A DNA stretch of 64,000 nt. Source: Escherichia coli (GTDB lineage Bacteria > Pseudomonadota > Gammaproteobacteria > Enterobacterales > Enterobacteriaceae). This document shows, piece by piece, positions 24,817 to 51,786 of this stretch (the stretch's first letter is position 1; each line of letters starts with the position of its first letter). Both the position numbers and the translations under genes were made by a program. The DNA lies in NCBI RefSeq assembly GCF_001677475.2, contig NZ_CP015229.1, one strand, 5' to 3'. The notes beneath the pieces are model-generated. The model ran no database searches. It saw only the letters and a list, made by a program, of their open reading frames with translations, and was not told where the DNA came from.

Positions 24817-25516
24817 GGGAGTTCTACCGCAGGGGCGGGGAACTCCAAGTGATATCCATCATCGCATCCAGTGCGCCCGGTTTATCCCCGCTGGCGCGGG
24901 GAACACCAAATCCAGCCAGCCGCCGACGGTAATCACCCCGGTTTATCCCCGCTGGCGCGGGGAACACTATGGGGTAGGGCGCTATCAGACATTTACGCAC
25001 GGTTTATCCCCGCTGGCGCGGGGAACACTGCAAGTAACGTTAAGGGAACCGTGGAGACAGCGGTTTATCCCCGCTGGCGCGGGGAACACTTAGAAAACGC
25101 AATGAGCCGCGCGCCCATACCCGGTTTATCCCCGCTGGCGCGGGGAACACGGCACGCTGGACTGAACAAATCCCTGGGCCATCGGTTTATCCCCGCTGGC
25201 GCGGGGAACACACTTACAACCACAATAATAAAAAAAGCCTCGTCGGTTTATCCCCGCTGGCGCGGGGAACACGCCGCTATCTCACCACCAGAACTGTTAC
25301 CCGTCGGTTTATCCCCGCTGGCGCGGGGAACACTTGCAGTGGATAGTCATGTAGCCCGCGCGGGCCGGTTTATCCCCGCTGGCGCGGGGAACACTTTAAA
25401 TACTGCCGTTCCAGCTTGTTGATCGCCGGTTTATCCCCGCTGGCGCGGGGAACACCGTAACTGCCTGTACACGCTGTAATGGCTCACCGGTTTATCCCCG
25501 CTGGCGCGGGGAACAC
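24817..25516 (-). CRISPR. CRISPR array 1 (type I-E): 11 identical 29-nt repeats plus 1 degenerate terminal repeat, 11 spacers of 32 nt
   Basis: Repeat CGGTTTATCCCCGCTGGCGCGGGGAACAC (plus strand) recurs at 24878 + 61k for k=0..10. Degenerate distal repeat at 24817-24845 (GGGAGTTCTACCGCAGGGGCGGGGAACTC). Leader is on the cas2 side, so transcription is on the minus strand. Confidence 0.97.
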
Positions 25517-25612
25517 ACTAAGCATACATAACTGTTTTTAAACAAATTTATTCCGCATCAACAATCTACCAACTAAATTAAAACATTTCCTTATTTTTAA
25601 AGAACGGATAAC
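25517..25612 (-). promoter_or_regulatory. CRISPR array 1 leader (AT-rich) between cas2 stop and first repeat
   Basis: AT-rich 96 nt; contains ACAATCTACCAAC about 42 nt from the first repeat, a motif also present in the array 2 leader. Confidence 0.7.
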
Positions 25613-25906
25613 TTATTGATTATCAACAGGAAGAAAAGAAACCAAACGCAACCCATCCAAATCCACCGGAATACGTCTATTTTCACCCCAGGTCTGAAAT
25701 TCAAAACCTGACTCGGTATTGGTCGCCCAAGCCATCACTACATTTCCGCAACCTGCCAGTTGAGAGATTTGCTGCCAGATCATCTCCCGAATACGTTTGG
25801 ATGTATCTCCGACATACACACCGGCACGCACTTCCAATAGCCAGATAGCGAGCCGTCCACGTAAACGTGGAGGAACATTTTCCGTTACAACTACGATCAT
25901 ACTCAT
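25613..25906 (-). CDS. cas2: CRISPR adaptation endoribonuclease Cas2
   Basis: 97 aa, [33 protein letters not shown]… (I-E Cas2); ATGA overlap with cas1 stop. Confidence 0.93.
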
Positions 25907-26826
25907 CCGCCGCGTCCTCGATGACCGCTATCGCCCAACGTTTCAGGTTCGGGGATGGCTGGCGGTAACATATCCGGCGCGGGTTGTGGTGGTTCAATTT
26001 CACCTGCGGCAAGCACTTCCTCAATTAACGGAATTAATTTGCCCGTTAACTTAGAGCTACGGAAAATATCGCGACAAGCCAACCTGACTTCTTTATCAGG
26101 TTCTGCGGGTTGCCTCGCCGCTATTTCAAATGCCTTTGGTACAACCGAATCAAATTTAATGATATCGGCTATGTCGTAAACAAATGAAAGCGGTTTGCCA
26201 CTATGGATAAAACCAATAGCGGGCGCATATCCCGCAGCTAATACTGCCGCTTCAGAAATACCGTACAGGCATGATGTGGCAGCACTGATGCAGCGATTGA
26301 CAACATCGCCTTTTTCCCAGTCTTTAGGATCGTATTTGCGACCATTCCATTTCACACCATATTGTTTCGCCAGTAATGCATAGGTCTGGCGAACGCGGGA
26401 TCCCTCAATTCCCCGTAGCTGCTCCACTGAACGGCGAGCTGGCGGTGGCTCACGAAAACGTAATTCATACATTTTGCGCACCACCTTCAGGCGTAGATCT
26501 TCCGTTAAAGCCAGCATTGCCTGGTAGAGTAACTTATCAGCACGCGCCCCACCGGGTTGTCCGGAAGAGTAGACGCGAACACCCGCTTCACCGACCCAGA
26601 CCAGTAGCGTCCCCACCGTGGCGGCCAGATGGACTGCCGCGTGGGAAACTCTTGTTCCCGGTTCGAGCATAATGCAGGCGACCGATCCCACTGGAATATG
26701 CGTGCGGATCCCTGTTTTGTCGATCAGCACGAAAGCGCCGTCCAGTACGTCGATTTGACCGTACTGGAGGAAGATCATGGAAGTGCGATCTTTTAATGGG
26801 ATCGGGCTCAGCGGTACAAACCTCAC
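25903..26826 (-). CDS. cas1: CRISPR integrase Cas1 (type I-E)
   Basis: Cas1 core (…[39 protein letters not shown]…). Start set at GTG 26826 overlapping the cas6e stop (GTGA), by similarity to the recalled K-12 N-terminus; the ORF-track TTG at 26862 is an alternative. Confidence 0.9.
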
Positions 26827-27473
26827 GCCTCTGCTCCGGGTTTGATCAGCATCAGACCACAACCGAACGCCCGGCTTTTGCCATACCCCTGACTGAGACG
26901 TTGCAGAAATAACCCAGGATCGGTGACCGTAAGCATCCCCGTATAATCCACGCTACTGAACTGGATCAGTTGCCGGGAGTTTTCCCGCCGCAGTTGCTGT
27001 TGTCGGTAGGCATCAACCGAAGTATCCAGCAGTGTAAAACCGCTTCTCTCCCCCTGCGCTGCCAGCCAGTTCAGCGCAGCCTGTTGTTGATGCAACCAGA
27101 CATCACTTCCTTCCACCGGCCCCCTCACCTGCCGTTTCGCCTCCATCAGCAAGTCGTGGCGTTTGCCCGCTTTACAAATTGTTGGATTCGCCCGCAGGTT
27201 GAAACAAAGGGATTGTCCGGTACGCAACTCTGGCGCAAATGGTCGGCATTCGATGGTGAAAATATCACTTTCCGCCGGGCGTTCCTGCGACAGGACAAAA
27301 AAGCGAAACGCCCCCTGGAGTTCTTCCCGACGATAAAGAAATTGCCTTTCTTTGCCGCCAGGAAAAAGATCCCACAGCCACTGATGCATTACATATTCAC
27401 CGCGATCCACCAAATGCAGCAACTGCGCAGGCGAAAGCTGGCCGGTATGTAATGTTATTCTTGAGAGGTACAT
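26823..27473 (-). CDS. cas6e: crRNA endoribonuclease Cas6e (CasE)
   Basis: Start at ATG 27473 (MYLSRITLH…) preceded by AAGGAGGA; 216 aa; Gly-rich C-terminal segment (GYGKSRAFGCGLM). Strongly diverged from K-12 CasE as recalled. Confidence 0.9.
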   Translation of the reverse strand: MYLSRITLHTGQLSPAQLLHLVDRGEYVMHQWLWDLFPGGKERQFLYRREELQGAFRFFVLSQERPAESDIFTIECRPFAPELRTGQSLCFNLRANPTICKAGKRHDLLMEAKRQVRGPVEGSDVWLHQQQAALNWLAAQGERSGFTLLDTSVDAYRQQQLRRENSRQLIQFSSVDYTGMLTVTDPGLFLQRLSQGYGKSRAFGCGLMLIKPGAEA

Positions 27474-50919: not shown

Positions 50920-50926
50920 ATGAGGT

Positions 50927-50952
50927 AGGCCGGGCGGAAAACTGCCCGGCCT
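50927..50952 (+). terminator. GC-rich hairpin after ygcE (no U-tract)
   Basis: AGGCCGGGC-ggaaaact-GCCCGGCCT, 9-bp stem, 8 nt after the ygcE stop. Confidence 0.4.
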
Positions 50953-50964
50953 GAACATACCTAA

Positions 50965-51786
50965 ATGGTTATCCCCGCTAACGCGGGGAACTCACTGAAA
51001 ACACCGGCGAGATCGTATTTTTTGCCGGTTTATCCCCGCTCGCGCGGGGAACTCTACCGGAAGGCAGGCACATTAGATCAGGTGATCGGTTTATCCCCGC
51101 TCGCGCGGGGAACTCCAGTGAGCGGAAGAAGAATGACTAACAGAGAGCGGTTTATCCCCGCTCGCGCGGGGAACTCCCCAGCCACAACAGCCACGCGTCG
51201 CGCTGTTCCGGTTTATCCCCGCTCGCGCGGGGAACTCGGAAACCGCCCCGGCGGTGGTTGGCTGTTTGCCGGTTTATCCCCGCTCGCGCGGGGAACTCTT
51301 TGCGCCGGAAATAGGAATCGTATTCGGTCTCGGTTTATCCCCGCTCGCGCGGGGAACTCTTATGCATCTCATCAAGCTTGTCGCCAAACGACGGTTTATC
51401 CCCGCTCGCGCGGGGAACTCTTAAATCGCGCTGGAAAAAAATGGTTTTTGCGCGGTTTATCCCCGCTCGCGCGGGGAACTCACACCCCGTTGCAATAAAT
51501 GGTCTGGGGGCTGCGGTTTATCCCCGCTCGCGCGGGGAACTCCAAACGCTTCTTCGTAGGCAGCACTGTAGGCCCGGTTTATCCCCGCTCGCGCGGGGAA
51601 CTCGGTGAAAAGATGAGTGCATACTGGTTTGTTTTCGGTTTATCCCCGCTCGCGCGGGGAACTCTCTTTTCCCGCTAATCACGACCAGATCCTGTCCGGT
51701 TTATCCCCGCTCGCGCGGGGAACTCGTAAAACCTCCTCGCGCCCACAATCGCAGCGGCGGTTTATCCCCGCTCGCGCGGGGAACTC
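50965..51786 (-). CRISPR. CRISPR array 2 (type I-E): 13 identical 29-nt repeats plus 1 degenerate terminal repeat, 13 spacers of 32 nt
   Basis: Repeat CGGTTTATCCCCGCTCGCGCGGGGAACTC recurs at 51026 + 61k for k=0..12. Degenerate distal repeat (GGTTATCCCCGCTAACGCGGGGAACTC) at 50966-50993. Leader on the queE side. Confidence 0.97.

Follow-up and report, generated by a model that had tools for sequence, protein, structure and literature searches.

A type I-E cas operon of the E1 variant

The window (the whole 64-kb stretch of Escherichia coli DNA analyzed, 64,000 nucleotides) contains a complete type I-E cas operon, identified with NCBIfam models as a series of intact open reading frames on the strand complementary to the one displayed, and an Rfam-detected sok RNA.

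25613-34506 (-), complete type I-E cas operon
25613-25906 (-), cas2
25903-26826 (-), cas1
26823-27473 (-), cas6e
27455-28201 (-), cas5e
28212-29267 (-), cas7e
29282-29818 (-), casB
29815-31377 (-), casA
31807-34506 (-), cas3
34838-34995, sok RNA

All eight Cas proteins scored above the curated NCBIfam type I-E cut-offs, Cas3 through its core and HD domain models. The operon is collinear with E1-type E. coli operons and matches them in gene lengths and at 94-97% DNA identity; blastn against the K-12 (E2) operon gave no match. E1 cas genes are accompanied by a leader of type L1 and by a hok/sok module next to cas3, leader type being linked to the cas variant (Almendros 2014), and the window has this arrangement, combining an L1-type leader, an E1-collinear operon and sok. 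The repeats likewise have the type I-E architecture (29 nt, 7-bp stem, 4-nt loop, 32-nt spacers, 61-nt period), and an AAG PAM accompanies the phage matches of two array 2 spacers. A scan of the whole window at Rfam gathering thresholds returned sok only and no CRISPR repeat family; this is irrelevant to the type I-E assignment, whose basis is the cas genes together with repeats exactly identical to those of E. coli. The possibility that the window comes from a non-coli Escherichia was rejected: its best identity is 97.6%, and E. coli strains differ equally from each other in this region (96.3-98.3% for most pairs, 99.5% only for the closely related K-12 and BL21).

Separate from the repeat variants described below, the cas3-casA intergenic region carries a creR-like degenerate mini-CRISPR of a known kind.

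31692-31781 (+), mini-array: PsiR1 31692-31720, PsiS 31721-31752, PsiR2 31753-31781
31611-31645 (-), predicted PsiS target: AAG PAM at 31645-31643, then matches at PsiS positions 1-5, 7-11, 13 and 15-17

No site in the 64 kb other than the predicted target fits the PAM-plus-seed pattern (0.00 expected), and mini-array and target are conserved with co-variation in five strains. Promoter and terminator scans of the cas3-casA region scored no better than shuffles. Like CreR and other regulatory mini-arrays of the cas3-cas8e interval (Shmakov et al. 2023; Liu et al. 2023 preprint), the unit consists of two degenerate repeats around a spacer in a long intergenic region, with a first repeat that keeps the 5' handle, a second that keeps the hairpin, and a partial spacer match near an AAG or ATG PAM with mismatches at every sixth position. 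Its target lies ~265 bp upstream of casA, compared with ~140 bp reported for S. enterica, in which repression of the casA promoter by Cascade with the mini-array RNA has been shown (Liu et al. 2023 preprint). On these sequence features the unit would be classed as a CreR-type regulatory mini-CRISPR, with a putative regulatory role.

Two arrays with private repeat spellings

Two CRISPR arrays accompany the cas operon, one adjoining cas2 and one between ygcE (49441-50919) and queE (52126-52797).

24817-24845 (-), degenerate terminal (leader-distal) repeat of array 1, GGGAGTTCTACCGCAGGGGCGGGGAACTC, ending in AACTC
24846-24877 (-), conserved anchor spacer of array 1, directly after the degenerate repeat
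24878-25516 (-), array 1 (CRISPR2.1 / CRISPR-I), 11 identical repeats CGGTTTATCCCCGCTGGCGCGGGGAACAC and 10 spacers of 32 nt
25517-25612 (-), array 1 leader of the L1 type, which pairs with cas-E1 genes
50965-50993 (-), degenerate distal repeat of array 2, ATGGTTATCCCCGCTAACGCGGGGAACTC, with a third loop spelling, TAAC
51026-51786 (-), array 2 (CRISPR-II), 13 identical repeats CGGTTTATCCCCGCTCGCGCGGGGAACTC
51787-51900 (-), array 2 leader (CRISPR2.3 leader)

Exact, near-exact and Hamming scans found 11 perfect copies of the array 1 repeat and 13 of the array 2 repeat, each series at 61-nt spacing and with 0 copies expected in shuffles, which bears out the first-pass annotation that the two arrays use different, internally homogeneous variants. 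On the displayed strand all 11 repeats of array 1 read ...TGGC...AACAC and all 13 of array 2 read ...TCGC...AACTC; they differ only at repeat positions 16 (G/C) and 28 (A/T), the second loop base and the penultimate base, as had been stated from the sequence alone. The displayed strand is the crRNA antisense. In crRNA sense the repeats are GTGTTCCCCGCGCCAGCGGGGATAAACCG (GTG...GCCA loop) for array 1 and GAGTTCCCCGCGCGAGCGGGGATAAACCG (GAG...GCGA loop) for array 2, and the variable positions are repeat position 2, in the single-stranded stretch before the stem, and base 3 of the 4-nt hairpin loop. Both spellings are predicted to fold into the same hairpin, at a minimum free energy of -15.2 kcal/mol for array 1 and -15.1 kcal/mol for array 2.

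The degenerate repeat of array 1 does end in AACTC, as first noted, the spelling otherwise used by array 2. All 7 E. coli strains compared (K-12, BL21, SC418, MEI003, ST2747, FDAARGOS_1289 and ERL03-1416) have retained this repeat and the anchor spacer, differing by a few substitutions at most. The AACTC ending is a relic and no link to array 2. The array 1 leader differs from those of SC418 and FDAARGOS_1289 by 1 substitution in 110 nt and is unlike the K-12 CRISPR-I leader. No external matches were found for the array 1 spacers.

The degenerate distal repeat of array 2, absent from the earlier list of repeats, is the counterpart of the ygcE-adjacent first repeat of CRISPR2.2, and array 2 is thus the fused CRISPR2.2-3 form (in the wording of Almendros 2014). 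Counting the one after this repeat, array 2 has 13 spacers. The first 110 nt of its leader are nearly identical to the CRISPR-II leaders of K-12, BL21 and other E. coli, and the block ACAATCTACCAAC, at leader positions 45-57, is common to the leaders of both arrays. The oldest array 2 spacer of the window, ACTGAAAACACCGGCGAGATCGTATTTTTTGC, recurs in SC418 and MEI003, all later spacers differ among these strains, and one repeat-spacer unit has been lost from the window relative to the other two. Array 2 has gained 12 spacers that are absent from the related arrays compared. Spacer A2_2 has 31 of 32 positions in common with phiV10/HK629 and spacer A2_6 has 30 of 32 in common with P22-like phages, the protospacer being followed in both cases by CTT on the displayed strand, i.e., an AAG PAM. 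These sequences indicate that array 2 kept acquiring spacers after the loop C arose, and that temperate phages, with a canonical AAG PAM, were the source of at least two. Period-183 rows reported by Tandem Repeats Finder in array 2, which suggested similar spacers three units apart, were discarded as alignment artefacts since the spacers, compared without gaps, are no more alike than chance would make them (maximum 15/32).

Polarity, allele frequencies and the origin of the two spellings

[quoted passage not shown] Using the GAG/GTG (A/T) polymorphism as a label, Yosef, Goren and Qimron found that the new repeat is a copy of repeat #1, never of repeat #2 or of array II. Neither variable position is part of the inverted repeats, and substitutions outside these barely affect adaptation (Goren 2016). 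Under such templating, Cas1-Cas2 would duplicate the leader-proximal repeat of its own array at each spacer acquisition, so each array would become homogeneous for its own spelling. A substitution in repeat #1 would pass to all later repeats of that array and never to the other array, so that a neutral change would spread in one array only, and substitutions in internal repeats would remain singletons. The spellings would drift because both positions are functionally tolerant. The A/T difference is an old, species-wide polymorphism, and the loop G-to-C change is a derived allele, rare in the species, that belongs to the CRISPR-II lineage of arrays.

The distribution of variants in relatives, where repeats were located by exhaustive Hamming scan, has this polarity. 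In every mixed array inspected (SC418; MEI003, both arrays; 2012C-4221; O169:H41; PCN033; K-12, both arrays; BL21; GF43; N3), the variant repeats form a contiguous leader-proximal block and the ancestral spelling is distal; the window's own two arrays are already fully swept. An older distal G repeat is followed by 6 C repeats in SC418 and by 17 in MEI003, O169:H41 carries 4 repeats with G followed by 6 with C, and 2012C-4221 has C in repeat #1 only. Random order would produce the combined polarity of MEI003, 2012C-4221 and O169:H41 about once in 180,000 trials (171 x 5 x 210). The same pattern holds for another loop base in MEI003 array 1 and for A/T in K-12 and BL21, and internal singleton repeat mutations that were not propagated occur in SC418, BL21, K-12 and FDAARGOS_1289. 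The first-pass annotation had proposed that co-occurrence of both variants within single arrays of related strains would indicate neutral drift with no array-specific history. Both variants do share single arrays in K-12, SC418, MEI003, 2012C-4221 and O169:H41, always as polar blocks; such blocks reflect neutral drift and array-specific history at once, and the test as framed is a false dichotomy.

The G/A spelling occurs in 4232 and the G/T spelling in 3868 of 5426 complete E. coli genomes, so at least 2674 (about half) carry both. The C+T spelling is present in 40 of these genomes (0.7%) and the C+A recombinant in none of the 5426; that C is never combined with A suggests an absence of exchange between the arrays. 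The loop C lay at the ygcE-queE array in every case inspected base by base (9 of the 40 carriers). Most carriers have the allele in a 4-repeat orphan array, and strain 1190, the one such genome inspected, has no cas genes. Carriers have it on three or more distinct spacer and leader backgrounds, which requires either recombination close to the leader end or mutation that recurred; if the change were purely neutral, the same transversion arising repeatedly would be somewhat unexpected. Among 100,044 species representatives, C/T was found only as single copies, in a Pluralibacter MAG and K. oxytoca, and no array uses it there. A literature string search found no paper with the C/T (GCGA-loop) spelling, though it did find the common ones.

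A rival reading is selection on function: the two spellings would tune the arrays through Cas6e processing, crRNA stability (with a GNRA-type GCGA loop) or acquisition rate, and would be kept for that effect. The several spacer and leader backgrounds of the C allele fit this, as do its strict confinement to CRISPR-II in the inspected cases and to the T background, and the slightly greater length of array 2. Against it, adaptation has been shown not to need the regions that hold the two positions, the predictions of fold and energy do not change, TGAC, TAAC and TGAT loops also occur in functional-looking arrays, and the assignment of A and T to the two arrays is reversed in K-12. The allele is moreover rare and mostly found in the 4-repeat orphan array; in that of strain 1190 no selection on function is possible, since the cas genes are absent. 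Such tuning is therefore highly improbable, and it is just as hard to credit that the GCCA to GCGA change alters Cas6e turnover, crRNA 3'-handle stability or Cascade loading; if it did, its occurrence on at least three backgrounds, always in CRISPR-II, would mean recurrent selection and not recombination. A literature search found no published statement on the tolerance of Cas6e to loop changes, and we infer that this one is neutral for Cas6e processing and interference. Nothing points to functional specialization of the two arrays.

Homogenization of each array by recombination or gene conversion among its own repeats, independent of adaptation, is also very unlikely. Repeat recombination does occur (SC418 and MEI003 have one unit that the window has lost, and deletions distinguish arrays), and Kupczok 2015 is reported to describe recombination in array evolution, but conversion would erase internal singletons and would give no strictly polar blocks, both of which are observed, and the Yosef 2012 experiment already provides a sufficient mechanism. 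The chances are about even, in our judgment, that the A/T difference stems from two sources and not from mutation in place, array 1 having been exchanged horizontally together with its leader and cas genes while array 2 stayed chromosomal. The cas-adjacent array has A in all E1-type strains sampled and T in K-12 (E2), and compared with strains 1190 and 19KM1831 the window is 95-97% identical on the ygcE side of array 2 and 99.1-99.6% identical on the leader/queE side. Yet the array 1 distal anchor is common to E1 and E2 strains, and the loop C, which arose inside the CRISPR-II lineage, is left unexplained. Exchange would in any case complement templating and not replace it, templating still being needed for array homogeneity.

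Leader-proximal templating combined with neutral drift thus very probably explains the array-private spellings of what is a standard I-E locus of the major E1 cas variant with the two usual arrays. This analysis supplied the sequences, the polarity seen in relatives, the matches to phages and the frequencies of the alleles; templating and positional tolerance come from the literature. Of the earlier proposal that the arrays have partly independent histories while served by one cas set, the separate repeat lineages stand; their status as a special feature of the locus does not, this being expected, published I-E behavior. Array-specific spellings here are a known and already explained phenomenon, a predictable by-product of first-repeat duplication with little importance beyond bookkeeping. 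They serve mainly to mark lineages in CRISPR typing and to help reconstruct how arrays have recombined. The GCGA-loop allele offers a natural tag for the CRISPR-II array in ~0.7% of E. coli genomes and a natural demonstration that loop substitutions permit continued spacer uptake.

Comparison with characterized E. coli loci

Almendros et al. (2014) concluded that the two E. coli I-E CRISPR loci evolved in different ways. The GAG/GTG polymorphism found here in nature is the label used by Yosef 2012, and the positions that vary belong to regions that Goren 2016 reported to be dispensable; the strain-label sentence of Yosef 2012 reads opposite to the K-12 and BL21-Gold sequences examined here, which leaves the conclusion of that study unaffected. 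K-12 MG1655 resembles the window in the positions of its arrays (iap-cas and ygcE-queE), its 29-nt repeat family and 32-nt spacers, its array 1 distal anchor repeat and spacer, and a nearly identical CRISPR-II leader. Its arrays also differ in A/T, with the opposite spelling surviving in the distal repeat, but the arrangement is reversed, the cas-adjacent array ending in ...AACTC and CRISPR-II in ...AACAC. K-12 further differs in its divergent E2 cas genes and L2 leader, in having separate CRISPR2.2 and 2.3 arrays and in lacking the loop C allele. SC418 (NZ_LR778147) and MEI003 (NZ_CP071263) share with the window the cas variant, the A spelling of array 1 and a fused CRISPR2.2-3 with C/T, whereas they keep one older repeat with G as well as one additional old spacer, differ in all later spacers and have a short, 98-bp cas3-casA intergenic region.

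Repeats and cas genes of the two arrays

Exact and exhaustive Hamming scans placed both arrays in the E. coli CRISPR2 repeat family with a 61-nt period (shuffled sequence leads one to expect no matches). They upheld the first-pass annotation in that the two repeats differ at exactly two positions and that each spelling is homogeneous within its own array (11/11 and 13/13 identical repeats). Named by loop base and penultimate base on the displayed strand, the spellings are G/A in array 1, adjoining cas2, and C/T in array 2, at CRISPR-II. The leader-distal end of each array is a degenerate repeat, of which the earlier annotation had listed only that of array 1.

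24817-24845, degenerate distal repeat of array 1
24878-25516, array 1, 11 identical repeats CGGTTTATCCCCGCTGGCGCGGGGAACAC
25613-34506, minus strand, type I-E operon from cas2 to cas3, complete and intact
50965-50993, degenerate distal repeat of array 2, with a third loop spelling, TAAC
51026-51786, array 2, 13 identical repeats CGGTTTATCCCCGCTCGCGCGGGGAACTC

The crRNA is antisense to the displayed strand. In the RNA sense, the two differences fall at repeat position 2 (U in array 1 versus A in array 2), in the single-stranded stretch 5' of the stem, and at the third of the four loop bases (C versus G, i.e., GCCA in array 1 and GCGA in array 2). ViennaRNA predicts an identical 7-bp hairpin for both spellings, with minimum free energies of -15.2 kcal/mol for array 1 and -15.1 kcal/mol for array 2.

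Array 1 is flanked by iap and the cas operon, all eight products of which score above the curated cut-off of NCBIfam type I-E or Cas3 models, and array 2 lies between ygcE (49441-50919) and queE (52126-52797), the E. coli CRISPR-II locus, in the fused "CRISPR2.2-3" form of Almendros et al. (2014). The cas genes are of the major E1 variant, collinear with those of SC418, ST2747 and FDAARGOS_1289 at 94-97% identity, and the array 1 leader is of the matching L1 type; blastn of the operon against that of K-12 (E2 variant) yielded no alignment. E. coli gene order is kept across the whole window. An 8-kb test region reached a best identity of 97.6% among 5,426 complete E. coli genomes, and pairs of E. 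coli strains mostly give 96.3-98.3% over the same region, with only the close relatives K-12 and BL21 reaching 99.5%; because its identity falls within this between-strain range, the window is ordinary E. coli-type sequence. A sok antitoxin RNA (Rfam RF01794, 113 bits; 34838-34995, minus strand) directly upstream of cas3 corresponds to the hok/sok module found in all strains but those with K-12-type cas genes (Almendros 2014). Tandem Repeats Finder also reported a repeat of 24-nt period at 15661-15737 (3.2 copies, 71% matches) that bears no relation to either CRISPR array.

Distribution and order of the repeat spellings

That the two arrays differ in A/T is normal for E. coli. Every E1-type strain sampled (SC418, MEI003, ST2747, FDAARGOS_1289 and ERL03-1416) has A beside cas and T at CRISPR-II, as in the window, whereas in K-12 the repeats next to cas end in AACTC and those of CRISPR-II in AACAC, a distal repeat in each array keeping the opposite spelling. 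By exact-word search, G/A occurs in 4232 and G/T in 3868 of 5426 genomes, so at least 2674 hold both. The array 1 distal repeat with its AACTC ending, noted earlier as the array 2 form, is an old anchor rather than a link to array 2: this degenerate repeat and its neighbouring spacer are conserved, with few substitutions at most, in 7/7 strains including K-12.

Loop C, on the other hand, is a derived allele, rare and belonging to the CRISPR-II lineage. An exact match to C/T was found in 40 of the 5426 genomes and to C/A in none, and just two stray single copies of C/T occur among 100,044 species representatives; the repeat string was absent from the literature searched by string. All nine carriers inspected have it in the ygcE-queE array. 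The arrays of mixed spelling inspected follow a polar order without exception. For example, array 2 of SC418 and MEI003 runs from the distal end through a degenerate repeat and a G repeat to 6 or 17 C repeats, in O169:H41 four G repeats give way to six C repeats, and in 2012C-4221 the sole C repeat is the one touching the leader. The chance of such an order in MEI003, 2012C-4221 and O169:H41 jointly is about 1 in 180,000 (171 x 5 x 210, random order). The same polarity is seen at another loop base in MEI003 array 1 and for A/T in K-12, BL21, GF43 and N3, and mutations of internal repeats stay singletons.

Most of the 40 C/T carriers have four such repeats only. The sole four-repeat carrier inspected, E. 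coli 1190 (comparison locus L008, NZ_CP023386), retains CRISPR-II as an orphan array; its cas operon and array 1 have been lost, and iap adjoins hok directly. A related I-E array in a Pluralibacter MAG (comparison locus L001, 6789-8342; repeat CGGTTTATCCCCACTCGCGTGGGGAACTC) shares the TCGC loop with array 2, carries a compensatory change in the stem (GC to AC/GT) and switches in blocks from AACCC to AACTC; only its most distal repeat is spelled exactly like the C/T repeat of the window.

Judging from its spacers, array 2 stayed active after the loop change. Its oldest spacer (ACTGAAAACACC...) is common to SC418 and MEI003, where it comes immediately before the first C repeat, and all 12 later spacers, like the 5 and 16 later ones of SC418 and MEI003, respectively, are unshared among the related arrays compared; repeated acquisitions therefore postdate the mutation. 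Spacer A2_2 (51116-51147, CAGTGAGCGGAAGAAGAATGACTAACAGAGAG) matches the temperate phages phiV10 and HK629 and O157 typing phages at 31/32 positions, and A2_6 (51360-51391, TTATGCATCTCATCAAGCTTGTCGCCAAACGA) matches the temperate P22-like Salmonella phages ST160 and SE1 at 30/32. On the displayed strand, CTT, the canonical AAG PAM, follows each of the two protospacers. Array 1 spacers had no matches to phages or plasmids.

The C allele occurs on two anchor spacers (fused arrays), in one unfused array and with at least three leader-to-queE haplotypes. In addition, the relatedness of the window shifts at array 2 (50965-53280). On the ygcE side, identity to every strain compared is 95-97%; from the leader through queE and downstream it is 99.1-99.6% against 1190 and 19KM1831, both carriers of C, but just 90-93% against K-12, SC418 and others. 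The shift points to a recombination breakpoint inside or beside array 2. Given the several backgrounds together with this shift, recombination near the leader end is the simplest route by which the allele would have spread; judged by the nine arrays inspected, recurrent mutation may have placed C on them instead.

A degenerate mini-CRISPR between cas3 and casA

The cas3-casA intergenic region of the window spans about 430 bp (31378-31806). In the E. coli of E1 type that were inspected it measures 98 bp, and they therefore lack the mini-array. The elements in the window are as follows.

31611-31645, minus strand, predicted PsiS target, preceded by AAG at 31645-31643
31692-31720, plus strand, PsiR1, repeat-like, with the 5'-handle-like ATTAACCA kept
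31721-31752, plus strand, PsiS, 32-nt spacer
31753-31781, plus strand, PsiR2, hairpin kept, 4 mismatches to the array 1 repeat

The repeat-like elements of this degenerate mini-CRISPR (31692-31781) are 61 nt apart. PsiS matches its target, about 50 nt away on the opposite strand of the same intergenic region, at positions 1-5, 7-11, 13 and 15-17; mismatches 6 and 12 are every-sixth positions, which make no contribution to target pairing (Shmakov et al. 2023). The PAM-plus-seed pattern occurs once in the 64-kb window, with 0.00 expected. Spacer and target co-vary in four other strains (GF43, N3, strain 135 and ECNB21-M121), with AAG or ATG as PAM. The full long form is found in 2 of 5426 complete genomes (GF43 and N3), and 55-71% of it in a few more; in this region of K-12 (E2) all that is left is a PsiR2-like hairpin (GGTTTATCCCTACTTAAGTAGGGAA), its stem bearing compensatory changes. 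Type I-E loci, those of E. coli among them, have been reported to carry regulatory mini-arrays between cas3 and cas8e (Shmakov et al. 2023), and in S. enterica CreR RNA was shown to repress casA (Liu et al. 2023 preprint). The window element matches both, so it is creR-like and of an already known kind.

Comparison with the known adaptation mechanism

Array-private spellings in polar blocks are what the established adaptation mechanism would predict, a new repeat being copied at each spacer gain from the leader-proximal repeat of its own array. The earlier proposal that the arrays have partly independent histories while sharing a single Cas set is true, but it amounts to the textbook expectation. 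Variants do co-occur in single arrays of relatives, which had been put forward as a sign of drift with no array-specific history; because this co-occurrence is polar, it does not refute such a history. This analysis gave no sign of functional specialisation of the two spellings, and the loop change is probably neutral at the crRNA processing and interference stages. The two inverted repeats are the only essential parts of the repeat (Goren et al. 2016), and both variable positions lie in the regions found tolerant in that study. Natural GAG/GTG spellings already served Yosef, Goren and Qimron (2012) as labels in showing that a new repeat copies the leader-proximal one and not the second repeat or the other array, although the sentence assigning labels to strains there is the reverse of the K-12 and BL21-Gold sequences here, which leaves that paper's result unaffected. 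Finally, in Almendros et al. (2014), the cas-adjacent array moves with the cas and leader module and CRISPR-II is more clonal.
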